From contig JACPBG010000002.1 of NCBI GenBank assembly GCA_016180435.1, forward strand, positions 1 to 58,341: a stretch of DNA of 58,341 bases, written 5' to 3'. The DNA comes from Candidatus Sungiibacteriota bacterium (GTDB lineage Bacteria > Patescibacteriota > Minisyncoccia > Sungbacterales > HO2-52-23). Positions within the stretch are counted from its first letter, which is position 1; each line of letters begins with the position of its first letter. The notes beneath the pieces were generated by a model. The model was given only the letters and a program-made list of their open reading frames with translations, searched no databases and was not told the DNA's origin. A program made the position numbers and the translations under genes. Below, in pieces: positions 3,138 through 52,749 of the stretch.

Positions 3138-4502
3138 ATGATGAATTCTGACATTTTTCACGCATATGATATTCGCGGGAAATATCCAACGGAAATAAAT
3201 GAGGTTGTCGCCGAGCGAATTGGAAATGCCGTAGCCCGGTATCTTTCTATCAAGCTTAAAAAAAGGCAGCTGACGTTAATTGTGGTACGGGATGTGCGGA
3301 TGTCTTCTCCGCTTTTGCAGGAGGCATTGATACGAGGAATTACGGCGCAGGGCAGTGATGTAATAGATGCTGGTATTGGCACTACGCCGTTTTTTTACTT
3401 TCTGATTCAAAAGTTTAGAGTGGATGGGGGTTTAATGGTGACGGCATCTCATAACCCCCCTGAATATAATGGGTTTAAAATTCGGGAAAAAGGCGGTGGT
3501 CCGATCTTCATGGGAACCGGTCTGGAGCGGATTAAAACAATGGTACTTTCGCAACGTGCGGTTAGAAATAGGACCGGGGAGCGGATTTTTCCGAAAATGG
3601 ATTACAAAAAAAAGTATTTTGATTTTTTAAGTAAAGGGATTGCAATTGAAAATATACGAGCTGTTATTGACGCTGCCGGTGGGAGCGTTACGTACTTTTT
3701 ACCGGAGCTCCTTGCGCGTTTTCCATCGCTTACATATAAACCTTTGTTTTTTGAGTCGGACGGAAGTTTTTCGCGCCATTCTCCGAATCCGCTTTTACCA
3801 TCCGCACAGAAATTTGTGCAAAAAGAATTAGAAACCGGACAATTTCAGTTTGGGGCAGTGTTTGATGGTGACGGAGATCGCATAAGTTTTTTTGATGAGA
3901 AAGGAAATGCAATCCGTTCCGAGTTCATATCCGCGCTTTTTATGGATGAGGAATTGAAGAGGAGACGCGGGGGTACATATGCATTTGCCGTGAATACCTC
4001 GCGCGGTGCGCGTGAATATATTGAAACCAAGGGCGGCCGGATTGTTTTTATGCCAATCGGTCCTCCACGCGCAAAAATAGTAATGCAACGCACTCATGCA
4101 CTTTATGGAACAGAATTTGCTCCACATTTCTATTTTAAGAAATTTTTCTATAATGACTCTGCTTTAATGGCGCTTTTGCGCCTCGCGCAAATTATTTCCC
4201 GAACCCATCGGCCGTTATCGCAGCTTGTTGCTCCATTTGCGCGTTATATTTCATCCGATGAAATAAATCTTTCTATAAAAGATAAAAAAGCCGCTATGCG
4301 GCGCGTTTTAGAGTTTTATCGCGGGATTCCCGGAGTAAAAATAACTAAAATAGACGGCATTAGCGTTGATTTTTCGGATTGGTGGTTTAATCTTCGGCCC
4401 TCCAATACCGAGCCGTATATTCGTTTAGTAATGGAGGCGCGGACGCAGGAGTTATATGACGAGAAAATGAAAGAACTTGAGCGGATTATCGGAAAGCATT
4501 AA
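3138..4502 (+). CDS. Second phosphomannomutase/phosphoglucomutase family paralog
   Basis: TASHNPPEYNGFK and FDGDGDR loops, 454 aa, tandem to the first paralog. Confidence 0.85.
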   Translation: MMNSDIFHAYDIRGKYPTEINEVVAERIGNAVARYLSIKLKKRQLTLIVVRDVRMSSPLLQEALIRGITAQGSDVIDAGIGTTPFFYFLIQKFRVDGGLMVTASHNPPEYNGFKIREKGGGPIFMGTGLERIKTMVLSQRAVRNRTGERIFPKMDYKKKYFDFLSKGIAIENIRAVIDAAGGSVTYFLPELLARFPSLTYKPLFFESDGSFSRHSPNPLLPSAQKFVQKELETGQFQFGAVFDGDGDRISFFDEKGNAIRSEFISALFMDEELKRRRGGTYAFAVNTSRGAREYIETKGGRIVFMPIGPPRAKIVMQRTHALYGTEFAPHFYFKKFFYNDSALMALLRLAQIISRTHRPLSQLVAPFARYISSDEINLSIKDKKAAMRRVLEFYRGIPGVKITKIDGISVDFSDWWFNLRPSNTEPYIRLVMEARTQELYDEKMKELERIIGKH

Positions 4503-5681: not shown

Positions 5682-6032
5682 ATGCAATTTGCAGTTATTA
5701 AAACCGGCGGGAAACAATATCTGGTTGAACCCGGAAAAAAGCTAAAAATTGAGAAATTGGCCGCCCCCGCAGGGGGCGAGCCTCGCCATGGGCGGGACGC
5801 CCCGGATGGCGGAAAATTTGTATTTGATCAGGTTTTGCTGACGGCTGATGGAGATAACGTGGAAATCGGTAAACCGCTGGTTTCCGGCGCCAAAGTCGAG
5901 GGGAAAATATTAACGCAAGGCAGGGCGCGCAAAGTCATTGTCTTTAAATATCACCGTAAAACAAGATACCGCAAGAAAAAAGGGCATCGCCAGCATTTCA
6001 CGGAAGTGGAGATTACAAAAATACATAAATAA
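5682..6032 (+). CDS. rplU: 50S ribosomal protein L21, with in-frame GC-rich insertion
   Basis: MQFAVIKTGGKQYLVEPG start and VIVFKYHRKTRYRKKKGHRQ tail. Internal Met at 5682 chosen over ORF start 5664. Confidence 0.9.
   Translation: MQFAVIKTGGKQYLVEPGKKLKIEKLAAPAGGEPRHGRDAPDGGKFVFDQVLLTADGDNVEIGKPLVSGAKVEGKILTQGRARKVIVFKYHRKTRYRKKKGHRQHFTEVEITKIHK
5760..5812. repeat. GC-rich hairpin element (GGGCGAGCCTCGCC core) inside rplU
   Basis: Core 14-mer at 5774-5787, flanked by gccgccc / ggcggg; encodes AAPAGGEPRHGRDAPDG, absent from the L21 consensus. Confidence 0.8.
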
Positions 6033-6597: not shown

Positions 6598-9099
6598 ATG
6601 GATACCATTACCAATCGTTTTGAGTGGGGGTCGAGGATGTTGTTATACGTTTTGGCGGCTTTTTTGCCGTTGGCGGTTTTGCCGATTAGCGTGCGGATTG
6701 ATTTTGGGCGCGAAATTATATTCACGTCTCTCATAATCGCCGCGGCTATTTTGTGGCTTCTCTCCGTTTTAACCACGGGTGAAATAAAAATTCGCCACTC
6801 GCCGGTTTGTTGGGCGGTCTTGGCCCTGCTTTTAGTGTTCGGAGCCGCTACCATATTTTCTAAATCGCCATTCGTGTCGTTTTTGATTTCGGATGCATCC
6901 GCCGAAAGTTTAGTAACGCTTATTGCGGCATCGCTTCTTATGTTGCTTGCATCCAGCATTTTCCGTTCGCGGGAAGAAGCCGGAATTCTGGTTTTTATCC
7001 TGATTTTTGCCGGAGCCTTGTCGGCATTGTTAACTCTGATTCAAATTTGGACCGGCTTTACTCCTTATCGATGGCTGGTGTCTTCCGCCACCAATATAGA
7101 TTTTAACGTGGTCGGGACCATAAATGGGCTTTCGCTTTTTTACACCGCGCTTTTTATGGCAACGCTCGGAATTCTTTTTTCTTCCTCGGCCGAATACTGG
7201 AAAAAATGGCTTAAATACGGATTTTGGGCGGCACTGGTACTTTTTGCGCTAAATATAATATTTATTAATTTTCGCATTGGCTGGGGAGTGATGCTCACAT
7301 CCGCCATTGTGGCATTCGGGTTTGTGTTTATGAATGTGCGCTTGGGTGGAAGAAAATTGGATTGGCGCTATGCATCTGCTATTTTTTTGATCGTTGTCTC
7401 GGTGGTAATGCTTATTATGCAAACACCTTTGGTGCAGTTTGCGTTTCCGGCCGAGGTGTCCCCGGCGCTTCGCTCGACCTTTAATGTGGCGCGTTCGGTC
7501 TGGGGCGAGGGTGTAATGCCTATGCTGTTTGGATCCGGTCCGGGAACCTTTGGTTTAGATTGGAACATGTATAAAGATCCTTCCATTAACCAGACAATTT
7601 TTTGGGGACTGCGTTTTAACCAGGGGTTTTCATGGGTTTCTACGGTTTTGGCCACCGCCGGTATTTTGGGATTTTTGGCGATGCTTGTGTTTCTTTTGAG
7701 CGCGGTGGCGGTTTACCTCCGCGCGGAGCTGATTGCCACTAAAGATGAAAAGCCATTTTCTTTAGGCGTATTTTTGGGTTTGGTAGCGCTGATCGCGTCG
7801 GTTTTTGTTTATCCGGCAAACCTTACGCTGATTTTTGGGCTTTTTCTTCTGGCCGGGATTTCGGCGGTATTTTTGGGGCGCGAAAGCGCCGTGTCCGGGA
7901 TTTTGCAGATGGACGCGGGGTCCGGCGGAGATAGCGCCGCGGAGCGCCGCCCAGATGGGCGAGCCTCGCTAATGGCGGGCCGCAGTTTCTGGGATGTTAA
8001 AGAGTATCTGGTGCGGCTGGAAAGTCCGTGGTTGGTGTTTGCTTCTTCGCTGGTGGTGATTGTGTTTTTATCGCTCGGCATCGCGGCATTTTATGCGGAA
8101 ATGATCCGGGTGCGCTCGGCCCTAGCGCGCGAGCGTGGGGTTGCTGCGTTAAATTCGGGAAATACGGATAACTCAATTGCCGAATTTGAACAGGCGGTTT
8201 TGACCGATCAGAGGAATTTCCGTAATTACCAGGCACTTTTGCAGGCGCGAACCGAAAAAGTGAAAAGTTTGATACAGCGCGCAGCCGGAGGAGAAAATGT
8301 CCAGCAGGATTTTCAAACACAAGTTACACTTGCAAGGCAAAATGCCCTGCGTGCCACTGAATTAAACCCGAGGGAGCCGTTGGCGTGGCGGGCGCGTGCG
8401 GCGTTTTTTGAGGTTTTGATTCCTTTTATGTCGGGATCCGAAAGTTTGGCTTTTGAAGGATACCAGCGCGCCTCAGAACTTGATTTTATGAATCCTTCAA
8501 TTTATACGGATTGGGGAAGGGCAGGTTTGGTTTACGCGGATCGGTTGTTGCTTGTGGCCAATCAGTCCTCGGGCGAGGCGCGGGAAAATTTGTTCAAATC
8601 AAGAACATCCGTATTGCAGGAAATTGAAAAAGTTCTTGAAAAAGCGGTATCCGCCAAGCCGGATTTTGCTACGGCCCATTTTTTGGCGGCGCAGACCTCC
8701 ATCCGTTTAGGCAATCTGCAATCGGCGATTCGCGCCACGGAAAATGCTAAAGCCACCGCTCCGTTTGATATTGGCATTGCATTTCAACTCGGCCTTTTGT
8801 ACTATCAGGCCAACGATATTGATAAATCGCAGATCGAGTTTGAGCGCGCCGTATTGCTTGACCCGAATTATTCTAACGCCCGTTATTTCCTCGGTTTGAT
8901 TTATGATCGCAAAGGCGATAAGCCGCGCGCCATCGAACAATTTGAAAAGATCGGAGCGCTGAATCCGGATAATCAGGAAGTAAAGCGAATTTTGCAGAAT
9001 TTGCGCGGCGGGACCGGAGCTCTTTCCGGAATCGTTCCTCCGGCCGAACCGCCGGAGAAGAGGCGCGAGGCGCCGGTTGTGCCGTCGCGGGATAAATAA
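6598..9099 (+). CDS. Polytopic membrane protein (O-antigen ligase/Wzy-like core) with C-terminal TPR repeats
   Basis: Many hydrophobic helices in the first ~450 aa, TPR-like repeats in the last ~350 aa (NYSNARYFLGLIYDRKGD). Confidence 0.75.
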   Translation: MDTITNRFEWGSRMLLYVLAAFLPLAVLPISVRIDFGREIIFTSLIIAAAILWLLSVLTTGEIKIRHSPVCWAVLALLLVFGAATIFSKSPFVSFLISDASAESLVTLIAASLLMLLASSIFRSREEAGILVFILIFAGALSALLTLIQIWTGFTPYRWLVSSATNIDFNVVGTINGLSLFYTALFMATLGILFSSSAEYWKKWLKYGFWAALVLFALNIIFINFRIGWGVMLTSAIVAFGFVFMNVRLGGRKLDWRYASAIFLIVVSVVMLIMQTPLVQFAFPAEVSPALRSTFNVARSVWGEGVMPMLFGSGPGTFGLDWNMYKDPSINQTIFWGLRFNQGFSWVSTVLATAGILGFLAMLVFLLSAVAVYLRAELIATKDEKPFSLGVFLGLVALIASVFVYPANLTLIFGLFLLAGISAVFLGRESAVSGILQMDAGSGGDSAAERRPDGRASLMAGRSFWDVKEYLVRLESPWLVFASSLVVIVFLSLGIAAFYAEMIRVRSALARERGVAALNSGNTDNSIAEFEQAVLTDQRNFRNYQALLQARTEKVKSLIQRAAGGENVQQDFQTQVTLARQNALRATELNPREPLAWRARAAFFEVLIPFMSGSESLAFEGYQRASELDFMNPSIYTDWGRAGLVYADRLLLVANQSSGEARENLFKSRTSVLQEIEKVLEKAVSAKPDFATAHFLAAQTSIRLGNLQSAIRATENAKATAPFDIGIAFQLGLLYYQANDIDKSQIEFERAVLLDPNYSNARYFLGLIYDRKGDKPRAIEQFEKIGALNPDNQEVKRILQNLRGGTGALSGIVPPAEPPEKRREAPVVPSRDK
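7921..7982. repeat. GC-rich hairpin element copy inside the membrane/TPR gene
   Basis: Core GGGCGAGCCTCGCT at 7957-7970; read as GRASL (codon phase 0). Confidence 0.75.
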
Positions 9100-10859: not shown

Positions 10860-12824
10860 ATGGAAATAAATGGAAATATCAGTATACGAAATTTTTGCAT
10901 ATTGGCGCATATTGATCATGGAAAATCCACTTTGGCGGACAGGTTCTTGGAAATTACCGGAACAATACCTTTGCGTGAAATGCACGAACAGTATTTGGAT
11001 ATGAATCCCCTTGAAAGAGAACGCGGCATCACTATTAAAATGACCCCGGTCCGCATGATTTGGCATACGCCAAATCATGCGGAGAACCGGTTACCAGTAA
11101 CCGGTAATTATCAATCAAGTTCAGAATATATTCTGAACCTGATTGATACTCCGGGGCATGTTGATTTCTCTTACGAAGTATCTAGGGCGCTGGCCGCGGT
11201 GGAGGGAGCGATACTTCTGGTTGATGCGACCCAGGGAGTTCAGGCCCAAACCATCGCGAATTTGCGTCTCGCTTTGGCCGAGGGGCTTTATATAATTCCG
11301 GCTATTAATAAAATCGATCTTCCAACTGCGCGCGCGGCTGAAACCAGGGAGGAAATTTTTGAGCTTTTCGCTTCAGAAGGGATCAAAGCCGGAGAAGTTC
11401 TTGAGGTCTCAGCCAAAACCGGGGAAGGGGTTTTGGAGCTGCTGGAGGCAGTGATAGAAAAAATCCCCCCTCCGGGAACCAATAAGCAGTTATCGGTAAC
11501 TAATAACCGGTTACCGGTTATCGGTGATTCAGTTCAACTGCGGGCGCTTATTTTCGATTCGCATTTTGATCCGTATAAAGGCGTTGTCGCGTATGTGAGG
11601 GTAAGGGATGGGATTTTGCGCAAAGGCGATAAAATTTTATTTTTGGCATCCGGCGCCGATGCCGATGCATTGGAGATTGGATATTTTATTCCGCGCCTTT
11701 TTTCCCAAGATAAAATTTTGGAAGGCGAGATCGGATATGTCGCGACCGGAATTAAAGAGCCGTCGAAAGTCAAGGTCGGAGACACCATAGTTAAGCGTTT
11801 AGAACTTAGAACTAAAAACTTAGAAAATAATTTGCTAAGTTCTAAGTTCTCAAATCTAAGTTCTACGGCCGTGGGGCCGTTGCCCGGATACCAAGAGCCG
11901 CAACCCATGGTTTGGGCAAGCATCTATCCGGAGGAAGCGGATGATTTTGACGAATTAAAAGACGCCATGGCGAAGCTTAAATTGAATGATGCCGCTTTCA
12001 TGTATGAGGTTGAATCCTCCGAATCGCTCGGCCGCGGTTTTCGCTGCGGATTTTTGGGGACGCTGCATTTGGAAATCGTATCCGAACGTATTCGGCGCGA
12101 GTATGATTTACAAGTCATGGTTACAACCCCTTCGGTCGCATATCGGATACGTTATGCCCGCGGCCGAGAGGAGATGATTTTTCGCGCGTCCAGCGCGCCT
12201 TCCGGAAGGGAAAAATACGTCATAGATGAGCCGTGGGCCGAGCTTAAAATTGTGACTCCGCCCGAATATATAGGCAAAATTACCGAGGTTTTGCACGAGC
12301 ATCGCGCTATCTCGGGTGATGCTAAAAATTTAGGTTCGCGGCGCATGATTTTATCCTTTTTGGCGCCGCTTAGCGAGATAATCGTGAATTTGCATGATGA
12401 GTTAAAAAGCATAACCCATGGTTATGCCTCAATGGAATATGAGGTAAGCGGCTGGAAGGAGGGAAATCTTTTGCGCTTGAATATTTTGGTCGCGGGCAAA
12501 GATATCGCGGCTTTTTCACGGATCATCCCGCGTTTGAATGCGGAACATGCAGGACGCGCTATACTTATTCGCCTGAAAGAACTTATACCCAAGACGCTTT
12601 TTCCTGTGGCGCTACAGGCGGAAACCGAAGGAAAAATAATTGCGCGTGAAACTATCCCGGCGCTTAAAAAAGACGTGACCGGATATTTATACGGCGGAGA
12701 TCGCACCCGCAAAATGAAGCTCTGGAAAAAGCAGCAAAAGGGCAAGAAGAAACTGAAAGAGCGCGGGGAGGGGGCGGTTGAGATCCCGCCGGAAGTATTT
12801 TTAAAAATTTTAAAATCCAGTTAG
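10860..12824 (+). CDS. lepA: Elongation factor 4 (LepA) with three in-frame repeat insertions
   Basis: AHIDHGKSTLADR, DTPGHVDF, NKIDL G-motifs; LepA C-terminal GYASMEYE. Start at internal Met (MEINGNISIRNF). Confidence 0.95.
   Translation: MEINGNISIRNFCILAHIDHGKSTLADRFLEITGTIPLREMHEQYLDMNPLERERGITIKMTPVRMIWHTPNHAENRLPVTGNYQSSSEYILNLIDTPGHVDFSYEVSRALAAVEGAILLVDATQGVQAQTIANLRLALAEGLYIIPAINKIDLPTARAAETREEIFELFASEGIKAGEVLEVSAKTGEGVLELLEAVIEKIPPPGTNKQLSVTNNRLPVIGDSVQLRALIFDSHFDPYKGVVAYVRVRDGILRKGDKILFLASGADADALEIGYFIPRLFSQDKILEGEIGYVATGIKEPSKVKVGDTIVKRLELRTKNLENNLLSSKFSNLSSTAVGPLPGYQEPQPMVWASIYPEEADDFDELKDAMAKLKLNDAAFMYEVESSESLGRGFRCGFLGTLHLEIVSERIRREYDLQVMVTTPSVAYRIRYARGREEMIFRASSAPSGREKYVIDEPWAELKIVTPPEYIGKITEVLHEHRAISGDAKNLGSRRMILSFLAPLSEIIVNLHDELKSITHGYASMEYEVSGWKEGNLLRLNILVAGKDIAAFSRIIPRLNAEHAGRAILIRLKELIPKTLFPVALQAETEGKIIARETIPALKKDVTGYLYGGDRTRKMKLWKKQQKGKKKLKERGEGAVEIPPEVFLKILKSS
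11085..11110. repeat. CCGGTTA-type repeat module in lepA (copy 1)
   Basis: aaccggttaccagtaaccggtaatta, encodes NRLPVTGN. Confidence 0.7.
11491..11529. repeat. CCGGTTA-type repeat module in lepA (copy 2)
   Basis: tatcggtaactaataaccggttaccggttatcggtgatt, encodes NNRLPVIGD; direct repeat of copy 1. Confidence 0.7.
11799..11866. repeat. TAGAACT heptamer-repeat hairpin in lepA
   Basis: Left arm agaacttagaactaaaaacttag, right arm ctaagttctaagttctcaaatctaagttct; outer 10 bp perfect; translated KRLELRTKNLENNLLSSKFSNLSS. Confidence 0.8.
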
Positions 12825-23097: not shown

Positions 23098-23808
23098 TCA
23101 GGGGATAAATGATTTATCAAATTTTCGCAGGCGATTCTCCATGATGATTTGCCAGTTTTCATCATCATAATACATCAATTTATCTTCCAGATAATTCGTT
23201 TCGTTCATCAGTGATTTTTCGTCCGTATGGCCGGCATAGAAAAGATGGCTAAGTTCATGGGTTAAAACATGTTCGGAGTCTTCATCCCACACGACAATCG
23301 CCGCATTTTTATCCGCATTGGCGTATCCGATATACGGCTCCTCGGTTTCTATTAGGAATTTACTGCCGTCCAGAGTTTCGATTTCGAGTTCTTTGTGAAT
23401 ATACATCGTGCGATGGATAATTCCTATTGTTATATCCGAGGAATTGTTTTTGCCAATATAGGCAATTTCGGAAAGCACTAAATGGGGATTCCATTCATAA
23501 TATAACGATGGGTCGAAAAAGTCATACGTGTCTAAGTACGCCGGAGCATACCAGAGAGCAAATGCGTCAATGGAGAAAGTTATAGAGAAATTTTTTTTAA
23601 AAACATGCGATGCGGTTTCAAAAATTTTACGGATTTTCGATTCAAACTCGCTACGATCTTTCTGTCCGTACATAAGAATTTGATCCAGTAGCACCGTAAC
23701 GCTTACGTTTCGAATTTGTACGGAAGGTTTATCTTCTTGCGGAAGGGCATGGCTGGGCATGGAAAAAAATAGCGCCAGCGCGGCCAAGAGTATATGGAGC
23801 ATACGCAT
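23098..23808 (-). CDS. Secreted HExxH zinc metalloprotease-like protein
   Basis: Signal peptide MRMLHILLAALALFFSMPSHA; HELSHLFYAGH motif. Confidence 0.6.
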   Translation of the reverse strand: MRMLHILLAALALFFSMPSHALPQEDKPSVQIRNVSVTVLLDQILMYGQKDRSEFESKIRKIFETASHVFKKNFSITFSIDAFALWYAPAYLDTYDFFDPSLYYEWNPHLVLSEIAYIGKNNSSDITIGIIHRTMYIHKELEIETLDGSKFLIETEEPYIGYANADKNAAIVVWDEDSEHVLTHELSHLFYAGHTDEKSLMNETNYLEDKLMYYDDENWQIIMENRLRKFDKSFIP

Positions 23809-23988
23809 AGCACATTTCCATATTTTGTAAGAGAAGCTATGCTAAAAGTAACTCCATATAAAATTTTCGTCAACCCCGTTAGAGAGAAACAAAGATTCTC
23901 ATTTATCTTCAAGTATATCTGCGTTTATAAAAACCCTGTATGTATAAATCACCGTGTTTGTTTCTTTTTAACGGGGTCAACAACTAAT

Positions 23989-24705
23989 ATGAATTATATT
24001 ATAGGAATTGATGAAGCGGGACGAGCCGCCCGCAAGCGGGCGAGCTTCGCCCATCACCAATTTATTATTGGTATAGATGAAGCGGGACGAGGGCCTTTGG
24101 CGGGACCGGTAGTTGTTGCGGGAATTAAAATAGAACTTAGAACTAAGAATTTAGAACTTAGAAATATACGGGATTCAAAAAAACTGACGGCGCGGCAGAG
24201 AGAAGAATGGTTTAGAATTTTAACCAATCATCCGAAAATAGAATATGCGGTGGCAAAGATTTATCCTAAGGTAATTGACCGGATAAATATCTCGCAGGCG
24301 GCGAATCTCGGGGTTTTACGGGTATGCCGTAAATTATCAACGAATAACGGTAAAACATCATCGAATAACGAATCTCGTACGAATATACGAATTACGAATT
24401 CCAGTATTCGTAAATTCGTAAAGGATTCGTTATTCGCTGATGCCATATTTTTGGACGGCGGTTTGAAACTTCCCCGGCGCATTTCTCATGAGGTGATTAT
24501 AAAAGGCGATGAAAAAATTCCGGCGATTTCCGCCGCATCTATTATTGCCAAAGTAACGCGGGATCGTTTAATGTTCCGTCTCCACAAAAAATATCCCAAG
24601 TACCGGTTTGATCTGCACAAAGGATACGGAACGAAACTTCATTATGTGCTGATACGGAGATTCGGGCATTCTGTCATCCACCGGAAGTCGTTTCGGCTCT
24701 CTTGA
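23989..24705 (+). CDS. rnhB: Ribonuclease HII with three in-frame insertions
   Basis: IIGIDEAGRGPLAGPVV catalytic N-terminus; C-terminal KGYGT motif; start at MNYIIG. Confidence 0.9.
   Translation: MNYIIGIDEAGRAARKRASFAHHQFIIGIDEAGRGPLAGPVVVAGIKIELRTKNLELRNIRDSKKLTARQREEWFRILTNHPKIEYAVAKIYPKVIDRINISQAANLGVLRVCRKLSTNNGKTSSNNESRTNIRITNSSIRKFVKDSLFADAIFLDGGLKLPRRISHEVIIKGDEKIPAISAASIIAKVTRDRLMFRLHKKYPKYRFDLHKGYGTKLHYVLIRRFGHSVIHRKSFRLS
24025..24063. repeat. GC-rich element (variant core GGGCGAGCTTCGCC) inside rnhB, flanked by 27-bp duplication
   Basis: Flanks 23998-24024 and 24064-24090 differ at 3 of 27 nt. Confidence 0.85.
24131..24165. repeat. TAGAACT heptamer repeats inside rnhB
   Basis: tagaacttagaactaagaatttagaacttagaaat, encodes IELRTKNLELRN. 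Confidence 0.8.
24362..24436. repeat. ACGAAT heptamer hairpin (75 nt) inside rnhB
   Basis: Outer 13 bp perfect: cgaataacgaatc / gattcgttattcg. Length is a multiple of 3; encodes NNESRTNIRITNSSIRKFVKDSLF. Confidence 0.85.
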
Positions 24706-29048: not shown

Positions 29049-29417
29049 ATGTCAAGGGCTGGGGTTATTTTGACTACATGTAAAAGTAAGTTAGAAGCCG
29101 AGCGGATCGGACGCGCGCTTTTGCAAAAACGGCTGGCAGCCTGTTGTATAACTATTCCGGAGGCGAGTTCTTTGTATCGGTGGCCGCCCCGATTTGAATC
29201 GGGGCGAGCCTCGCCTCGTTTACAACGAGGCGGGAAAGGGAAAATCAAAAGCGCCAAAGAAGTTATACTGTTGGTGAAAACTATGCGCGCTAAAGTCGGC
29301 GCGGCTGAACGAGAAATCAAAAAACTCCACTCCTATAAAATTCCGGCAATTATAACTTGGTCGGCAAGAAATGTTAATAAAATATACCTGCAATGGATGA
29401 AAAAGATGATAAAATAA
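29049..29417 (+). CDS. cutA: Divalent-cation tolerance protein CutA with in-frame GC-rich insertion
   Basis: ILTTCKS...LAACCITIP...SLYRW ... EVILLVKT ... HSYKIPAI CutA1 pattern. Confidence 0.8.
   Translation: MSRAGVILTTCKSKLEAERIGRALLQKRLAACCITIPEASSLYRWPPRFESGRASPRLQRGGKGKIKSAKEVILLVKTMRAKVGAAEREIKKLHSYKIPAIITWSARNVNKIYLQWMKKMIK
29184..29234. repeat. GC-rich element inside cutA
   Basis: ccccgatttgaatcgggg + GGGCGAGCCTCGCC (29202-29215) + cctcgtttacaacgagg; encodes PPRFESGRASPRLQRGG. Confidence 0.85.
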
Positions 29418-29948: not shown

Positions 29949-30007
29949 TCCCCACGAATTACGAATTTTGACGAATTGCGAAAGAGCGTCATTTTATCCA
30001 TGCACCA

Positions 30008-30065
30008 GCCGCCAGGGGCGAGCCTCGCCAAAGGCGAAAAGACCACGGGCTTGCCCGCGGAGCTT
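30008..30065. repeat. Intergenic copy of the GC-rich element
   Basis: Core GGGCGAGCCTCGCC at 30016-30029. Confidence 0.8.
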
Positions 30066-30068
30066 TAT

Positions 30069-30107
30069 CTGCAAATATATAGCGGTCGCTTTACGTTTGC
30101 GGATAGA
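30069..30107. promoter_or_regulatory. Palindromic motif upstream of the PaaX-like gene (candidate operator)
   Basis: tatctgcaaatata-tagcggtcgct-ttacgtttgcggata; about 80% identical to 30729-30769. Confidence 0.4.
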
Positions 30108-30123
30108 TTTAAAAGTGTTATAG

Positions 30124-30690
30124 TTGATGCCTATGGCTGCGGAAGGGAAAGGAGAAATTCAAAAAAAGGTTTTATTGTGCTTATGGGGCGGATTGGCGTT
30201 GGGTCTTTCCGGTACGCCTAAGCGTTATTTCCGCATCCTAAAATCGATAGGCAAGGAATGGGAGGCAATTGAACGGGAATCGCTCTATAGAACGATTCGT
30301 TCGTTATATCAATCCCGCCTTATTACTTGTAAAGAAAATAAGGATGGCACTACTACCTTGATTTTAAGCCAAGCGGGAAAGGAAAAAGTAATGACGTATG
30401 AACTTGACTCTATGAAAATTAAAAAACCGGACCATTGGGATAGTAAATGGCGGCTTGTTTTTTTTGATATTCCCGAGTATATCAAGGGCGCCAGGGATGC
30501 GTTACGAACGCGACTTAAACAAATTGGCATGAAAGAATTGCAAAAGAGCGTGTTTGTTCATCCCTTTCCATGTGATGACGAGATAAACTTTCTAATTGAA
30601 CATTATCAGATTCGACCCCATGTACGTACGGCAGTAGTTGAATCTATTGATAACGAACTTCATCTTAAAGTAAAATTTAGGTTATTATAA
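30124..30690 (+). CDS. PaaX-like transcriptional regulator family protein
   Basis: N-terminal wHTH-like region, C-terminal WRLVFFDIPE...R..L...G...LQKSVFVHP pattern (PaaX/Cas2-like fold). Confidence 0.6.
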   Translation: MMPMAAEGKGEIQKKVLLCLWGGLALGLSGTPKRYFRILKSIGKEWEAIERESLYRTIRSLYQSRLITCKENKDGTTTLILSQAGKEKVMTYELDSMKIKKPDHWDSKWRLVFFDIPEYIKGARDALRTRLKQIGMKELQKSVFVHPFPCDDEINFLIEHYQIRPHVRTAVVESIDNELHLKVKFRLL

Positions 30691-36263: not shown

Positions 36264-37022
36264 ATGCGTTTTGATATCATAACTATATTCCCCGAAGTAT
36301 TTGAATCATATTTAAATGCCTCAATGATCAAGCGCGCACGAGCTAAAAAACTCGTGGATATTCGGATACACGATTTACGCAATTATGTAAAAGTAGCCCC
36401 TCGACCCGCTTCGCTCTCGCTTCAGCGAGGCGAGCAGGCTCGGGGCAACTTGCCGCTTCGGCGGCAAGTTGATGACCGGCCGTACGGAGGAGGACCCGGC
36501 ATGGTTTTAAAAGTTGAGCCGATTATAAAAGCAATTGAAAAACTTTTAAAACCAATTTCCAATTCCCAATTCCCAATTTCCAAACGAAAGAAGGTAAAAA
36601 TCATTTTATTTTCCGCGGCCGGGAAGCAGTTTGACGCCAAAATAGCTGCGGATTTTGCCAAAAAATACGACCGCATTGTAATGATTGCCGGCCATTATGA
36701 AGGAATAGACGAACGGATTGGTAAAATTATTTTTGAAAATTGGAAATTGGAAATTGAAAATTTGTCGGTAGGTCCTTATGTGCTGACAGGCGGCGAATTG
36801 CCCGCCCTCGTTGTCGTGGATGCCGTATCACGCCACATTCCCGGATTTTTGGGAAAAGCGGAATCATTGGAAGAGAAACGATACGGCGTAGGGCTTCCTG
36901 TTTATACCCGCCCCGAAGTATTTTCGTACAAGGGTAAAAAATATCACGCGCCTAAGATTCTTCTTTCTGGCGACCATAAAAAAATAGAAATTTGGAGGCG
37001 CAAACAAAAAAGAGATATTTAA
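36264..37022 (+). CDS. trmD: tRNA (guanine37-N1)-methyltransferase TrmD with three in-frame insertions
   Basis: MRFDIITIFPEVF start, VDDRPYGGGPGMV, GHYEGIDERI motifs. Confidence 0.92.
   Translation: MRFDIITIFPEVFESYLNASMIKRARAKKLVDIRIHDLRNYVKVAPRPASLSLQRGEQARGNLPLRRQVDDRPYGGGPGMVLKVEPIIKAIEKLLKPISNSQFPISKRKKVKIILFSAAGKQFDAKIAADFAKKYDRIVMIAGHYEGIDERIGKIIFENWKLEIENLSVGPYVLTGGELPALVVVDAVSRHIPGFLGKAESLEEKRYGVGLPVYTRPEVFSYKGKKYHAPKILLSGDHKKIEIWRRKQKRDI
36393..36470. repeat. GC-rich multi-hairpin insertion in trmD
   Basis: Starts with the 15-mer aagtagcccctcgac shared with 4510-4524; contains gcaacttgccgcttcggcggcaagttg hairpin. Confidence 0.75.
36551..36584. repeat. CCAATTT heptamer repeats in trmD (left arm)
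   Basis: accaatttccaattcccaattcccaatttccaaa, encodes ISNSQFPIS. Confidence 0.8.
36731..36763. repeat. AAATTGG heptamer repeats in trmD (right arm)
   Basis: ttttgaaaattggaaattggaaattgaaaattt, complementary to 36551-36584; encodes ENWKLEIENL. Confidence 0.8.
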
Positions 37023-47240: not shown

Positions 47241-47339
47241 GATCGCGGATAGACGCGGATTTTTACTTACGCGGATAAACGCGGATAATTAAATTTATCT
47301 GCGTGAATCAGCGTATTGATCCGCGTAGATCAGCGTTTC
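47241..47339 (+). repeat. GCGGATA heptamer-repeat hairpin abutting the 16S 5' end
   Basis: Left arm has cgcggat(a) x4, right arm has atcNgcg x4-5. Confidence 0.8.
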
Positions 47340-47408
47340 TAAATGAGGATTTGATCCTGGTCCAGGATGAACGCTGGCGGCGTGGATAAGGCATGCAAGT
47401 CAAACGGG

Positions 47409-47508
47409 CACGTGCTTCGCACGGAGAACTTAGAACTAAGAACTTAGAACCAAGCAGTTTCTAAGATCTAAGTTCTAAACGCTAAGTTCTGCGCGCGGAG
47501 TGCGCGCC
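47409..47508 (+). other. 16S insertion 1 (V1/helix 6): clamp hairpins + TAGAACT heptamer hairpin
   Basis: cgtgcttcgcacgga + heptamer hairpin 47425-47490 + gcgcgcggagtgcgcgc. Confidence 0.8.
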
Positions 47509-47591
47509 AGTGGCGAACGAGTTAGTAATACCCTGGTACGTACCCCAGAGACGGGAATAACTCCGCGAAAGCGGAGCTAATACCCGATAGT

Positions 47592-47862
47592 CCCAGCACA
47601 TATTTTTGGAAATAAATAAGCGCAGTGCGCCTGCGCTCTCATCAAGAAATACTTAGTTTAAGAGAAGGGTAATGATGACGGAAGTAATTAGTACACTTAT
47701 TAATGCACTGAAAAAAGCAGTTCTCTTTTCGCTTGTATTGAGAAACTCTCGAATGAACTTCATGGTATACCCTATGTAAACGTGAAATATCTATAACTAA
47801 TTATATATAATTATAAAAATCTGTCAAGTGTTGTTAATTTGATTCCAAAAATATGTGCTGGG
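47592..47862 (+). other. 16S insertion 2 (V2 region): 271-nt AT-rich intervening sequence
   Basis: Closed by a perfect 19-bp stem: cccagcacatatttttgga / tccaaaaatatgtgctggg. Confidence 0.8.
47653..47763 (-). CDS. Speculative 36-aa hydrophobic peptide ORF antisense to 16S insertion 2
   Basis: MKFIREFLNTSEKRTAFFSALISVLITSVIITLLLN; weak SD; may be chance. Confidence 0.15.
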   Translation of the reverse strand: MKFIREFLNTSEKRTAFFSALISVLITSVIITLLLN

Positions 47863-48111
47863 TAAATCACTTAGATTGGCTCTGGGAGCGGCCTAGGTCC
47901 TATCAGCTAGTTGGCGGGGTAATGGCCCACCAAGGCAATGACGGGTAGGGGGCGTGAGAGCGCGACCCCCAACGGCGACAATGAGATACGAGTCGCACAC
48001 CTACGGGTGGCAGCAGTCAAGAACATTCGACAATGGGCGAAAGCCTGATCGAGCGACGCCGCGTGCAGGATGAAGGCCTTCGGGTCGTAAACTGCTTTTT
48101 AAGGGGAGGAA

Positions 48112-48281
48112 GCCGTGCTTCGCACGGAATGTCTAATTCCTAATTCACCTAATTCCTAATAAAATGCCCAATAAAAAAATGTCTAATGTCCAAAAACAGC
48201 TTTTGGGCTTTGGCAATTTGATATTTTGAATTTTATTAGAAATTAGAAATTAGATGTTGGAAATTTCGCGCGGAGCGCGGA
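48112..48281 (+). other. 16S insertion 3 (V3 region): same clamps as insertion 1 + TAATTCC/TTAGAAA hairpin
   Basis: 15-mer cgtgcttcgcacgga at 48114-48128, identical to 47411-47425; 3' clamp cgcgcggagcgcgg. Confidence 0.8.
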
Positions 48282-48593
48282 TTGACTGTACCCTTAGAAT
48301 AAGGCGCTGCAAACCTCGTGCCAGCAGCCGCGGTAATACGAGGGCGCCAAGCGTTATCCGGATTTATTGGGCGTAAAGGGTCTCCAGGCGGTTTGATTAG
48401 TCGGGCGTTAAATCCCGCTGCCTAACGGCGGGGCTGCGTTCGAAACGGTCAAACTAGAGGGATGGAGAGGGGATGGGAACTCACGGTGTAGGGGTGAAAT
48501 CCGTTGATATCGTGGGGAACACCAAAGGCGAAGGCACATCCCTGGCCATTTCCTGACGCTCATGAGACGAAAGCGTGGGGAGAGAATAGGATT

Positions 48594-49390
48594 GATCGCT
48601 CGTTTGCATATTGTCCGCTCAAAAACTACGGGCTGGACAAATGGAGCCGAAAACAGAACGGGAGCCCTCCGGCAGAGCCGGTTTCCCTTGTTCTGTTTTC
48701 TCACCATTTGTTAACCAGCCCTCCGTTAATTTCGCGGAGCAATACGCAAACTCGCTTATTAGAGGGATAATAAGATGTTAAAAGTATTGTTTTTTTCGGC
48801 ACTGTTTATTGTATTCGTGGCAAAAACTAACACTAGCGAAAACAGTGTTGATATTATATTCTACAGTTTTATGTCAGGAGTTTCGTTTGTCTTAGTTTTT
48901 GTTAACATTTATTTGAAACTTAAAGCGAACCGGAAGGGTATCCGGTGAGAACAACTAGTCCCTCCGATGAAAATCGGAGATAAAATTCCACTGTATCGGT
49001 GAAAGGCCTACTGCGGAAACGCAGGGTTAACGCCGAGGCAACGCTTACACAATTTTCGAACGTTAATTACTAATTTTTAATTCGTAATTAGGAATTGGCA
49101 ATTGCGTAAGCAGAGTCCGTAGAGACTGAACGTGGAACCCAGCTCTTTGTTGAAGCAGGGCAACTTGTTTGCCCCTTTAGCAAAGAACTGGTGATGTCAC
49201 AGTCCGAACTATGCAGTAATGCATAGAGCTAATCAGAAATGCGTTAGCCGGCAGCAAGTTTTGGAATTCTGGATTTTTAAATTTCTGATTTGCTTGCCCC
49301 GTAGTGAACGTGCAACGTTCTACCATCGGGGTTTAGAAATTAGAAATTCGGATTTAGAAATTCCAAATTTGTTGCGAGCAACAAATTTGT
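48594..49390 (+). mobile_element. 16S insertion 4: about 0.8-kb putative intron in the 790 loop, no homing-endonuclease ORF
   Basis: Splits the universal AGGATT|AGATACCC. Boundaries can be drawn with U before the 5' splice site and G as the last inserted nt. Confidence 0.6.
48775..48948 (+). CDS. Speculative 57-aa two-TM peptide ORF inside insertion 4
   Basis: GAGGGA 8 nt upstream of ATG; MLKVLFFSALFIVFVAKT...VSFVLVFVNIYLKLKANRKGIR. Confidence 0.2.
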   Translation: MLKVLFFSALFIVFVAKTNTSENSVDIIFYSFMSGVSFVLVFVNIYLKLKANRKGIR

Positions 49391-49751
49391 AGATACCCTA
49401 GTATTCCACGCCCTAAACGTTGCGCGCTCGCTGTTCCGAGTATCGACCCTCGGAGTGGCTAAGCTTACGCGTTAAGCGCGCCGCCTGGGAAGTACGAGCG
49501 CAAGCTTAAAACTCAAAGGAATAGACGGGAGCTCGCACAAGCGGTGGACCATGTGGTTCAATTCGACGACAACCGAGGAACCTCACCAGGGTTTGAAATT
49601 CTAATGAAGTTCCGAAGAAATTCGGAATGTCTCACAAGGACATTAGAACAGGTGATGCACGGTCCTCGTCAGTTCGTGATGTGAATTGTTCCCTTAAGTG
49701 GGGTAACGAACGCAACCCCCGTGGTATGTTATATGTGTCATACCAGACTGC

Positions 49752-49936
49752 CCCCCTCCAAGCCCGAAGGGCTTGGAGGCACAGATGTTCACAGATTTCT
49801 AACGGATTTTCACAGATCACAGATTCACACGGAAACCTTAACAGGCTACATCCGTAATTATCCGTGATCTGTGGTAATCTGTGGAATAATCTGTGTTAAT
49901 CCGTGGAAAACTCGTCATTGCGGGTTTGGAGGGGGG
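49752..49936 (+). other. 16S insertion 5 (helix 40 region): GC hairpin + CACAGAT heptamer hairpin
   Basis: ctccaagccc-gaa-gggcttggag, then cacagat repeats paired with atctgtg repeats. Confidence 0.8.
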
Positions 49937-50067
49937 AGGAAGGCGGGGATGACGTGAGATCAGCGTGTCCCTTTGATATCCTGGGCTACACACGTGGTAC
50001 AATGGCGCGTACAATGGGTTGCAAAGCCGCGAGGCGAAGCTAATCCCATAAAACGCGCCCCAGTTCA

Positions 50068-50098
<31 letters not shown>

Positions 50099-50159
50099 AG
50101 GAATCGCTAGTAAACGCGGATCAGCTACGCCGCGTTGAATACGTTCTCGAGCTTTGTAC

Positions 50160-51087
50160 TCGGGTCGCTATGCGGTTCAATAAGCGAGCAGGTTTAAATC
50201 CTGCCAAGAAAATGCAGTTTTTTGAAGCGAAATCGCAGTCCTTCGAGGGGCGACCCTCAGGATGAAGGGCGAAAGTAGCAGCTGCCAGCTTGAATATTCA
50301 TCGAGGCGCGATACAGGCGGTGACCCTGCGAGTACATGGGGAAACCACTGCATAAAATGCCTTATCGCGTATACCGAATATCGAGACGGCAGAGAACCGT
50401 TTATTGGGTTACCATAGGAGATCTTGCATAATTCTCGTAGTATATCTATACTCGAGATAGGAACGTGGATAACTTCGTTCCAATGTTATGCAAGAAGTCA
50501 GCAGAGTTCGTAGTAGCAAGAGTGATTCTAGATGCCGCAATCCGCGGCTTCGAGCGCCTCTTGCGAAGGAACAAATTCAGGCAAAAAAACTTCATCCGCA
50601 GTATATTGCGGGATTCATTGATGGCGAGGGTTCGTTCGTCGTGAGTTTCGGGCGCCATAAAACGCTCAAGCGCGGCATTGAAATCCGCGTTGAATTCACC
50701 ATCGAACTTCGCGCCGACGACAGAGAAATTCTTTATCGGATATTAAAAACCATCGGATGCGGAAAAATTTATGACGCATCATATGAACGATACGGATGGT
50801 ATCCGCATGTCAAATATAAAATCACAAGTACCAAGGATATGGAAAAATATCTGATTCCGTTTCTGGATAAAACGCCGTTACAGGCCAAGAAGCGAAAAGT
50901 ATATAGGGTATTTCGTGAAATTGTTTTGATGGTGCGGAGAAAAGAGCATTTGACCGATAAAGGATTTAAAAAGATCTTCAGATTGCGCAACGAATATCGT
51001 AAATACGGAAAGAAGCGCCTGAAAACCGCCAGGGTACGGGAAAACCGTTCGCCCGGTGGTGTGAGACAATAAGTAAAATTGATCTTA
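50160..51087 (+). mobile_element. 16S insertion 6a: putative intron with LAGLIDADG ORF
   Basis: Begins right after conserved CTTTGTAC; ORF stop is 15 nt before ATACCGCC (51088-51095). Confidence 0.65.
50488..51072 (+). CDS. LAGLIDADG homing endonuclease (single-motif type)
   Basis: YIAGFIDGEGSF motif, 194 aa, inside 16S. Confidence 0.9.
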   Translation: MQEVSRVRSSKSDSRCRNPRLRAPLAKEQIQAKKLHPQYIAGFIDGEGSFVVSFGRHKTLKRGIEIRVEFTIELRADDREILYRILKTIGCGKIYDASYERYGWYPHVKYKITSTKDMEKYLIPFLDKTPLQAKKRKVYRVFREIVLMVRRKEHLTDKGFKKIFRLRNEYRKYGKKRLKTARVRENRSPGGVRQ

Positions 51088-51095
51088 ATACCGCC

Positions 51096-52008
51096 AATTA
51101 ATAAAGTGCCCGGCAGCTTAATTGACTAGTTGGTTAAAGTCCAACCTCCCATTGCATATGGGACGTAGCCAAAAAAATAGCAGTCCACTATCCGTAAGGT
51201 TGTGGATAAAGGGCTTGAGGCAAATGGCAGCCTATGATACGATTAGAATATTGAACGATCGCCGCGGGCGGTCAGCGGGAAGTTCAATTATTTCCATCAT
51301 AGGATGCCGGGAATAGTTAATTAAGTGACCCGGGGAGATCCTAAACAGTCGAGTCATAATACTCGTTTAGGAAGTCAGCTGGCGTCATAGTACCGAGCAC
51401 TCAACCTGCACTACGCTCGTTCTGCGTTATGCGCAGTGCAAGTTGAGTGCTCGGGAAGGAGCCAACCAAAATTATGCTATCTCCTGATTATATTGTTGGA
51501 TTGACTGACGGTGAAGGTAGCTTTACCGCATATATACGGCCACCCAAGAAAGAGCATGGTTCTAAAAATTATCGGATTGAATGTCATTATTACATAAAAC
51601 TGCGTGAAGACGACCGATCACTTTTAGAAAATGTCAAAAATTTCTTTAGAACAGGACGGGTGGTATTTCAGCGGGAAAACCGGACGAATCATCATCATAT
51701 GTATCGATTTGAGGTTACGAACTTGCATGATCTGCAAAATTTAATAATTCCTTTTTTTGAAAAACATAAACTTCAAAGCAAGCGAATTAAAGATTTTGAA
51801 TTATTCAAGAAGATCGTTAAAGCGGTACTGAATAAAGAACATCAAACCGAAAATGGATTGCGAAAGATTCAACAATGGAAAAAGAAGATGCATCAATATA
51901 TGGGCTCGCCGAATACGGGAAACCCGTACGTTCGGTCTCGATATAGAAAGTCGAGGGTTCGATTAAAGAATCGGACTGGAAACGGGAAATAGACTCAATT
52001 ATCCCAAT
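51096..52008 (+). mobile_element. 16S insertion 6b: second putative intron with LAGLIDADG ORF
   Basis: ORF stop is 17 nt before conserved CCGTCACG resumes at 52009. Confidence 0.65.
51447..51992 (+). CDS. LAGLIDADG homing endonuclease (single-motif type)
   Basis: YIVGLTDGEGSF motif, 181 aa, inside 16S. Confidence 0.9.
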   Translation: MLGKEPTKIMLSPDYIVGLTDGEGSFTAYIRPPKKEHGSKNYRIECHYYIKLREDDRSLLENVKNFFRTGRVVFQRENRTNHHHMYRFEVTNLHDLQNLIIPFFEKHKLQSKRIKDFELFKKIVKAVLNKEHQTENGLRKIQQWKKKMHQYMGSPNTGNPYVRSRYRKSRVRLKNRTGNGK

Positions 52009-52330: not shown

Positions 52331-52385
52331 CATGTCGGCCGCCCAGTTTTATTGGGCGAGCCTCGCCCCGCAAGGGGCGGGAACA
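52331..52385. repeat. Intergenic copy of the GC-rich element downstream of 16S
   Basis: Core GGGCGAGCCTCGCC at 52354-52367, flanked by gccgccc / ggggcggg. Confidence 0.8.
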
Positions 52386-52405
52386 GCTGGAAGGTTTATT
52401 TATTC

Positions 52406-52558
52406 GGTAATACGCGCTCTGCTCAAGAGTTACGGCGCGGACAAATAATATTCGCTCGGCAATGGGAGCCCTCCGCTACGTGCGCTCGCGGTTTCCCTTA
52501 TTGCCTCGCTCATTTATTTGTTGCCGTGCCTACACCATTTCGCAGAATCGCGTATTAC
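52406..52558. repeat. Long imperfect palindrome, family B (153 nt)
   Basis: ggtaatacgcgctctgc... / ...gcagaatcgcgtattacc; shares ctcaagagttNcggcgcgga with 27958-28200. Confidence 0.75.
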
Positions 52559-52749
52559 CTCGTTTTGAGGTTTCCTTATTGTAGCCGCATTCGCGGCCTA
52601 ATTTTGTCTTTCCATTGTCTGAAATTACAATAGCCGAAACCGTTTTGGACTCGTTTAGGATTTTTCTCAAGGAAGCGCATCCCGCGCTTTTTTGTTTTTC
52701 CAATATTATCGCAGAGTTCCACGGGCTTGCCCGTGGGTATCTATCAAGA

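Follow-up and report, generated by a model that had tools for sequence, protein, structure and literature searches.

Twin-hairpin DNA repeats in frame in protein genes of a Candidatus Sungiibacteriota genome, and beside tRNA-Gly and GIY-YIG nuclease genes in related loci

Introduction

Rickettsia palindromic elements (RPEs) are approximately 100–150 bp in length, and each family encodes one conserved peptide that is read in a fixed frame (Ogata et al. 2000, as summarised in PMC10969869). Here we describe a shorter repeat, termed the twin-hairpin element, which was found in DNA of 58,341 nucleotides (the whole stretch, hereafter the window) from a Candidatus Sungiibacteriota bacterium of the candidate phyla radiation (CPR; contig JACPBG010000002.1 of assembly GCA_016180435.1, positions 1–58,341). 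The likeness to RPEs is in behaviour: both are palindromic, selfish repeats that sit in frame in unrelated and often essential protein genes and are tolerated there as extra surface segments. We know of no transposase for either. The twin-hairpin element differs in being only 36–55 bp in length, in having two short hairpins with variable loops, and in being read in three phases and both orientations, such that there is no single peptide. It also spans several phyla and has a defined position at tRNA-Gly genes, beside a GIY-YIG nuclease gene. An initial annotation of the window had compared the repeat with RPEs, and the comparison stands for in-frame insertion into genes; it fails for membership, given the size and the lack of a fixed peptide (PMC10969869).

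Other repeats invite comparison as well. Repetitive extragenic palindromic sequences (REPs) look like paired hairpins in which only the stems are conserved; they are extragenic, and one end of the palindrome bears the tetranucleotide GTAG or CGTC (PMC3733652). The twin-hairpin element shares with REPs, bacterial interspersed mosaic elements (BIMEs) and REPINs the short GC-rich hairpins, the stem-centred conservation and the many copies, which are sometimes in tandem (e.g. locus L205). A further likeness is to the GC clusters and byp elements of yeast mitochondria, reportedly exemplified by the GC cluster in VAR1 and by the Magnusiomyces elements that Lang and colleagues are said to have described in 2014. 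These are mobile GC-rich palindromes of 30–60 nt that are found in a genome of lower GC content and can sit in protein-coding genes. Byps are skipped by the ribosome, and this requires matched take-off and landing codons. Copies of the twin-hairpin element are, by contrast, in frame and free of stops, with nothing to indicate bypassing, and the sequences and hosts are unrelated.

The best reading of the element is as a new family of small mobile hairpin repeats that behave like RPEs and are set apart from them by the RPE description. More specifically, it appears to be a non-autonomous DNA repeat of approximately 36–55 bp, mobile or recently mobile, with a GIY-YIG nuclease as the candidate mobiliser; we assign this reading a probability of roughly 0.6. 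A mechanistic link to the nuclease is plausible and, if confirmed, would be categorically new.

Copies of the element in the window

A scan of the window for the core GGGCGAGCCTCGCY, with up to one mismatch allowed, gives six sites, at 5774, 7957, 24038 (one mismatch), 29202, 30016 and 52354. These are the six sites at which the initial annotation had reported a recurring 14-mer. Dinucleotide-preserving shuffles of the window contain a mean of 0.03 core matches, and none of 100 shuffles reaches seven. Raising the tolerance to three mismatches across the window yields no additional true copies, and the density of the element is approximately one per 10 kb. It should be pointed out that the location of all six copies on the + strand does not amount to a significant strand bias, because most genes of the window are on the + strand. 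The copies are as follows.

5760–5795, + strand: twin-hairpin element in rplU (L21), inserted in frame as exactly 36 nt that encode AAPAGGEPRHGR
7946–7979, + strand: twin-hairpin element within the linker part of a membrane/TPR protein, with the core read as GRASL
24025–24087, + strand: element in rnhB, arms 1–3 at 24025–24051, with the core variant GGGCGAGCTTCGCC
29183–29233, + strand: twin-hairpin element in cutA, a 51-nt in-frame insertion encoding PPRFESGRASPRLQRGG after an invariant Trp
30008–30037, + strand: intergenic truncated or degenerate copy with the exact core, a loop 1 of only 2 nt and a weak arm 4, GGCGA
52338–52381, + strand: complete twin-hairpin copy outside coding sequence, lying downstream of both the 16S gene and the LAGLIDADG open reading frames

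Four of the six copies are inside genes, which Pfam identifies as those for ribosomal protein L21 (5664–6032), a TPR membrane protein (6598–9099), RNase HII (23794–24705) and CutA1 (29049–29417). The copies at 30008–30037 and 52338–52381 are in non-coding DNA; the open reading frames (ORFs) at these places, 29976–30221 and 52352–52633, have no Pfam match. Coordinates and translations place the start of the core at codon position 3 in rplU (read as GGEPR), at position 1 in the TPR gene and in cutA (GRASP), and at position 2 in rnhB (RASFA). The core is thus read in all three codon phases, as had been noted initially. The same annotation set every copy within outer arms. This holds at 5774, 7957, 29202 and 52354, where both GCCGCC(C) and GGCGGG are found, and does not hold for the 30016 copy, in which arm 4 is weak, or for the rnhB copy, which lacks its own arm 4. 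In Logan, the source genome's longest short-read contig (L120, 2834 nt) terminates within the copy at 30016.

Anatomy and folding

A full copy has four arms, GCCGCCC–loop 1–GGGCGAG/CCTCGCY–loop 2–GGCGGG(A), where the slash separates arms 2 and 3. Minimum-free-energy (MFE) folds, computed for RNA and for DNA, give two adjacent hairpins on either strand, with arm 1 paired to arm 2 and arm 3 to arm 4. For the cutA copy the z-scores of the fold are −5.0 with RNA parameters and −6.2/−7.4 with DNA parameters.

Loop statistics were compiled over 62–67 distinct copies from the window and other genomes. Loop 1 is 2–14 nt and loop 2 is 5–37 nt in length, and the sequences are unrelated from copy to copy. 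The stems extend further than the arms, by a mean of 3.4 bp into loop 2 (0.6 in shuffles) and 2.1 bp into loop 1 (0.55 in shuffles). Of 62 copies, 59 close hairpin 2 with a Watson-Crick pair, and the presence of two alternatives, C:G in 43 and T:A in 16, reflects compensatory change. Arms and hairpin-closing pairs are conserved, and the loops are free to vary.

The initial annotation proposed a nested hairpin. This is not what is found; the MFE folds for RNA and DNA, and the loop statistics, favour adjacent hairpins. Loops 1 and 2 are each self-complementary and are not complementary to one another, and the inner pairing of GGCGAG with CTCGCC in a nested fold would enclose a loop of just 1–3 nt.

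Copies were compared by regular-expression scans and structure statistics instead of a covariance model, and MAFFT could not align arm 4 because of the 5–37 nt range of loop 2. No Rfam family matches the element when gathering thresholds are applied, nor does any match at E ≤ 1 in the cutA locus or in the tRNA-linked module that is described below. A literature search for the core 14-mer found no paper that contains it.

Insertion into protein genes

Comparison of filled and empty sites indicates that the element enters genes as a discrete unit, without target-site duplication. The best 120 of 6,440 L21 homologs are mostly 102–105 aa in length, and in the protein alignment the 12 additional residues of the window L21 (AAPAGGEPRHGR) lie between IEKL and D. 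The closest relatives, L125 and L216, share with the window the gene order YchF-PGM-RmuC-L21. They have the empty site ...AAA TTA/GAC GTC..., where the window has ...AAA TTG–GCCGCCCCCGCAGGGGGCGAGCCTCGCCATGGGCGG–GAC GCC..., and filled and empty sites differ by exactly 36 nt. In cutA, the insert adds 17 residues (51 nt) that are missing in all five homologs found, and it breaks the CutA1 Pfam domain match into two stretches. Neither the rplU nor the cutA junctions show a target-site duplication, the ambiguity being at most 1 nt.

The empty rplU site in a syntenic relative and the absence of the cutA insert from five homologs bear out the initial suggestion that the extra residues are lineage-specific. 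That annotation had also proposed to check whether they map to surface loops, and in AlphaFold models both inserts are in low-confidence coil between strands. In CutA, residues 47–62 have a predicted local distance difference test score (pLDDT) below 50 and form the turn between strands 32–45 and 65–79. In L21, the insert is in a coil of residues 24–44, which has the lowest pLDDT of the model.

MITEs, the miniature inverted-repeat transposable elements, have target-site duplications and derive from a recognisable insertion sequence (IS). Like MITEs, for example the Correia elements of Neisseria, the twin-hairpin element is short and non-autonomous, has terminal inverted repeats (5′ GCCGCC(C) and 3′ (G)GGCGG) and gives rise to occasional in-frame gene fusions. 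It differs in that the junctions in rplU and cutA are free of target duplication and that it has no known parent IS. The rnhB copy and the copies linked to tRNA genes do have long duplications, which are of another kind than target-site duplications.

In rnhB, the host sequence GCGGGA (codons for E-A-G) fills the role of the missing arm 4. The element is located between two diverged copies of the segment that encodes the N-terminal IIGIDEAGR, and the long loop 2 is a diverged duplicate of the 5′ end of the gene. At window positions 23986–24100 the order is MNYIIGIDEAGR, the element, and HHQFIIGIDEAGRG. The Pfam RNase_HII domain begins only at residue 92, i.e. at the second IIGIDEAGRG copy. Parcubacteria GW2011_GWA2_42_14 (L114) has the same arrangement of rnhB duplication and element. 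As a side observation, the annotated rnhB ORF has approximately 65 further upstream residues that are not protein-like.

Copies at a given gene site have been gained or lost among related genomes, as sequence comparison shows. Relatives have copies in ychF (L219) and cysS (L220) at sites that are empty in the window. In a neighbour-joining tree of L21 with the insert masked, which is only indicative because the protein is short, the window L21 groups with empty alleles, and the filled ones are scattered among the empty ones. The uvrA gene was hit at one site in L042 and in L090/L032 (two metagenome-assembled genomes, MAGs), just before the conserved motif WEGVIPxLERRY. The uvrA copies differ in loops and in phase (GEPRP versus GRASP), and the host sequence GTGGGA, which encodes Trp-Glu-Gly, serves as arm 4. 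Apart from these sites, the relative L216, in which the rplU site is empty, carries a variant element in its Peptidase_S11 gene (3860–3940), GGGCGGGCCGCCGCAAGCGAGCCTCGCCTCGCCGGGCGAGG.

Distribution and orientation in other genomes

The pattern GCCGCCC-N(1-14)-GGGCGAGCCTCGC, scanned with one genome per species, gave at least 119 loci. Among the matches listed, at least about 60 in genomes below 56% GC carry the full twin-hairpin architecture. High-GC pattern matches, in Streptomyces, Geodermatophilaceae and others, are without arm 4 and hairpin loops and represent chance or protein-coding sequence. The initial annotation had considered that a motif confined to the window would refute the element; structured copies are found well beyond it. 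By record title, the CPR groups include Levy-, Giovannoni-, Staskawicz-, Portnoy-, Jorgensen-, Doudna-, Nealson-, Sungii- and Saccharibacteria. Other low-GC carriers are labelled Planctomycetota (four MAGs, several contigs each), Omnitrophota, Melainabacteria and Bdellovibrionales, among others. A total of 373 kb around rplU of 80 other metagenomic relatives contains one copy, that of the rplU ortholog in L126. The family is therefore patchy, and spans many CPR lineages as well as MAGs labelled as other phyla.

About 23 of approximately 61 copies outside the window lie inside long ORFs, with host genes that include those for topoisomerase I, UvrA, PurL, PPDK and a Ser/Thr kinase. Where the ORF exceeds 900 nt, approximately 11 copies are sense and 12 antisense. 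The three phases and the two orientations inside ORFs together indicate that the conserved unit is DNA and not peptide, in agreement with what the initial annotation had concluded from the window. A function in sense mRNA was also considered and is ruled out by the copies in both orientations inside ORFs.

These findings bear on the proposal that the repeat is a selected peptide motif or an artefact of assembly or sequencing. Peptides such as GGEPR and GRASP do recur, but the phases and orientations yield unrelated peptides, and copies are present in non-coding DNA and beside tRNA genes. In addition, the identical sequence is found in independent Logan, ENA, JGI and NCBI assemblies. The proposal can be considered effectively refuted.

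As to a phage vector, only three IMG/VR contigs have the signature, and the GIY-YIG gene is in none of them. One IMG/VR contig classed as viral (L205, 10700–10830) has two tandem twin hairpins directly after tRNA-Gly(tcc), with no GIY-YIG gene detected. In loci labelled Brocadiaceae/Planctomycetota (L031, 6395–6440, and L117), a second repeated hairpin, GGAGTCCCGACC(C/T)AATCGGG, adjoins the element.

Association with tRNA-Gly and a GIY-YIG nuclease gene

All-against-all clustering of ORFs from 61 element-bearing loci gave as its largest cluster a small GIY-YIG protein (five loci), followed by the host gene uvrA (four loci). In 7 of the 61 loci the element has a GIY-YIG gene no more than 250 nt away, always antisense to the window orientation; the background in control CPR DNA is approximately four GIY-YIG genes per 373 kb. 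This cassette, i.e. a gene for the catalytic domain that adjoins the element, is present in related loci and not in the window.

A search with one of the GIY-YIG proteins gave 219 homologs of approximately 80 aa, mostly from CPR, and all those listed carry PF01541. As an independent test, the genomic context was determined for six homologs that were picked without knowledge of their DNA. In all six, a tRNA-Gly gene is followed by the twin hairpin and then by the GIY-YIG gene. The order of the module is tRNA-Gly ending in ...CCCGCTC, an AT-rich loop, GAGCGAGGCTCGCCC, a short loop, GGGCGGCCCGCT(C) and the GIY-YIG start, and the element is present as the reverse complement of the window copies. 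The 3′ acceptor strand of the tRNA (CCCGCTC) constitutes one hairpin arm in the module fold. The exact core is found in four of the six modules, with a diverged core in L215 and L222, and the modules vary in tRNA-Gly anticodon (tcc, ccc, gcc) and in neighbouring genes. A position immediately 3′ of tRNA-Gly genes is thus the recurrent one for the family.

Remnants or duplicates of the tRNA 3′ end are found after the nuclease gene in L208, L212, L222, L011 and L083; those after the cassette in L212 and L222 are degenerate, and in L208 duplicated 3′ ends stand on both sides of the cassette. In L024, the GIY-YIG gene and twin hairpin are flanked by a 21-nt repeat of the tRNA-Asp 3′ end.

Seg proteins and I-TevI carry a DNA-binding domain, whereas the approximately 80-aa protein is limited to the catalytic domain and is encoded next to a conserved twin hairpin. 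Its nearest structures are those of UPF0213, 1zg2 and 1ywl, and NCBIfam has no model for it. The likeness is to SegB of phage T4, a free-standing GIY-YIG homing endonuclease whose gene is in a tRNA gene cluster (PMC2330249): in both cases a GIY-YIG gene is found between or beside tRNA genes, with local sequence duplication or replacement. A literature search found no paper that links GIY-YIG, tRNA-Gly and hairpin repeats in CPR.

Perhaps the twin hairpin and the approximately 80-aa GIY-YIG gene together make up a minimal autonomous mobile element of 350–400 bp. Such an element would integrate at tRNA 3′ ends (tRNA-Gly, or tRNA-Asp in L024) and duplicate the end of the tRNA, and the solo hairpins in genes would derive from it as non-autonomous units, dependent for movement on a catalytic-domain-only nuclease that acts in trans and recognises hairpins once they are extruded. 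We consider this possible, if doubtful.

Small GIY-YIG genes of other kinds were also observed in L024 (3000–3450), L083 (3800–4250) and L198 (4300–5100), between a duplicated tRNA 5′ fragment and the intact tRNA. The duplicated fragments are themselves interrupted by an unrelated GC-rich hairpin. The pattern resembles a general GIY-YIG cassette of CPR genomes that targets tRNA genes.

Proposed mechanism and alternatives

If the element is a non-autonomous mobile repeat, the following scheme can be envisaged. The four GC-rich arms fold into two adjacent hairpins on either strand, and a structure- or sequence-specific nuclease may cut the extruded hairpins, after which host repair or ligation would copy or paste the unit elsewhere. 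The sole candidate nuclease seen is the minimal GIY-YIG enzyme encoded next to the element, and its role is putative. Insertion may be preferred just 5′ of G-rich host sequence (GCGGGA, GTGGGA, GA), which would complete or extend hairpin 2. Genic copies survive only where their length is a multiple of three, where they are free of stops and where they are in surface loops; the GC-rich arms help to keep stop codons absent. The surviving genic copies are predicted to be translated as short extra loops.

Several points weigh against this reading. A hydrolytic GIY-YIG nuclease by itself cannot rejoin DNA. No GIY-YIG gene was detected by tblastn of the 58-kb window, and no transposase was recognised by eye in the window ORF list. 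Copies linked to tRNA-Gly are found without a GIY-YIG gene in L041, L112 and L205. A complete 615-kb CPR genome has a tRNA-Gly/GIY-YIG module with a diverged hairpin 1, and no solo copies are present in the 20 kb examined. Orientation relative to local GC skew is 36 versus 25 (p = 0.2), i.e. there is no replication-strand bias. Copies in the same genome have wholly different loops, and no recent burst from one master copy is visible. Nor was any presence/absence polymorphism found in the source population, the Logan contig L221 being 100% identical to the window over 11.6 kb. Finally, among four filled rplU alleles the nucleotide identity is 83–94% in the insert versus 55–78% in the flanks, and at third codon positions 67–100% versus 26–60%. 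Neutral decay of dead copies does not predict such conservation, which suggests that the arms are selected for their DNA sequence or that site-specific replacement has recurred.

The conservation in rplU raises the question of whether the sequence is useful or self-promoting without transposition, as an uptake-signal-like tag or a site for a chromosome-organising protein, and passes between related CPR genomes through homologous recombination and biased uptake. Several features would fit: no other nucleotide stretch of rplU is as well conserved across the four species, synonymous sites included; distant relatives have copies at identical gene sites (rplU, rnhB, uvrA); and both orientations and all phases are used. 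DNA uptake sequences (known as USS or DUS) occur approximately once per kb, arise by point mutation and are specific to one lineage. The twin-hairpin element, in contrast, has a density of just one per 10 kb, its copies are clean insertions of 36–51 nt that were not built by point mutation, and the identical core in unrelated phyla is a misfit for a species-specific signal. Moreover, the codons that flank the insert show no co-conversion between filled alleles. A tag of this kind is highly improbable.

The paired hairpins also call to mind REP/BIME- or IS200/IS605-type repeats, which a Y1 (HUH) transposase (RAYT, i.e. REP-associated tyrosine transposase, or TnpA) encoded elsewhere in the genome would mobilise in single-stranded form. 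Minimal IS200/IS605 ends look like paired hairpins with stem-only conservation and have no target duplication, and their orientation is tied to the replication strand by insertion into the lagging-strand template. The twin-hairpin element has two similar hairpins in direct order, conservation that is limited to the stems, and no target duplication. However, its orientation is independent of the GC-skew strand, with the 36:25 ratio given above. Its ends are GCCGCC and GGCGG with variable flanks, and neither has a GTAG or CGTC tag; its copies are frequent inside genes and not just between them. No RAYT was seen: inspection by eye of the first 70 or so residues of window ORFs of at least 90 aa, which were not scanned with Pfam, revealed no transposase, and there is none among the recurrent ORF clusters of the 61 loci. 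Movement by a Y1 transposase appears improbable.

The loci that lack the nuclease gene suggest another possibility, in which the twin hairpin exists in its own right, as a selfish or structural repeat, and the GIY-YIG gene, free-standing and homing-endonuclease-like, lands at the repeat or at the 3′ end of tRNA-Gly without moving the hairpin. The solo copies would then have been spread by an unseen enzyme or by recombination. The three tRNA-Gly loci with a twin hairpin and no GIY-YIG gene are in accord with this, as is a window that has six copies and no such gene. Other GIY-YIG clades (L024b, L083b, L198b) are in or beside other tRNA genes, where tRNA fragments are duplicated and the hairpins are unrelated, and T4 SegB offers a precedent for a GIY-YIG homing endonuclease within a tRNA gene cluster (PMC2330249). 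Yet no other mobilising enzyme recurs in the ORF clusters of the 61 loci, among which a few clusters of 2–3 loci were left unexamined. In addition, the spacing from hairpin to GIY-YIG start is approximately 10 nt in four of the six blindly chosen modules (L208, L209, L212, L222; larger in L214 and L215), and this regularity suggests a functional unit. A nuclease gene with no part in moving the hairpin is, in our view, unlikely.

Other hairpins and features of the window

The initial annotation listed looser relatives of the repeat in smc, trmD and GH1, gene identities that Pfam supports. None of the three shares the core, and only the trmD stretch folds strongly; the GC-rich stretches of smc and GH1 fold no better than shuffles. 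The trmD feature is given below.

36391–36473, + strand: GC-rich double hairpin of different sequence inside trmD, MFE −48.2 kcal/mol, z = −5.1, core absent

This double hairpin may represent a separate family of similar kind, and it suggests that further hairpin-insert families exist in the source genome. The Logan contig L221, identical to the window, begins at 70 and ends at 11700, and these assembly breaks may mark further repeats. The protein encoded last in the window has no entry in the collection searched.

The 16S rRNA gene (in the window region 47339–52000) spans 2866 nt versus 1533 nt for the model, and thus carries large insertions. After the 16S gene there is a match to group II intron domains D1–D4 (50458–50571), and two ORFs have LAGLIDADG motifs (50488–51072, IAGFIDGEGSF; 51447–51992, IVGLTDGEGSF).

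Significance

CPR genomes of approximately 1 Mb appear to be colonised still by selfish DNA, which rewrites essential proteins by adding short loops. The proteins affected in various MAGs are L21, CutA, RNase HII, UvrA, topoisomerase I, PurL and PPDK, and this has a bearing on the unusual insertions that are often remarked upon in CPR proteins. At a practical level, short-read assemblies break at the repeat, which can also lead gene callers and alignments astray.

The same 20-nt signature is found in MAGs of different labelled phyla from the same type of habitat, which suggests horizontal spread, possibly between episymbiont and host. The association of tRNA-Gly with a catalytic-only GIY-YIG protein provides a concrete hypothesis for how palindromic repeats of less than 50 bp move, a question that RPEs and many REP-like repeats raise too. 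If the hairpin and nuclease gene do form an autonomous element, this would represent a new enzymatic route to bacterial DNA transposition, common to CPR and other groundwater phyla.

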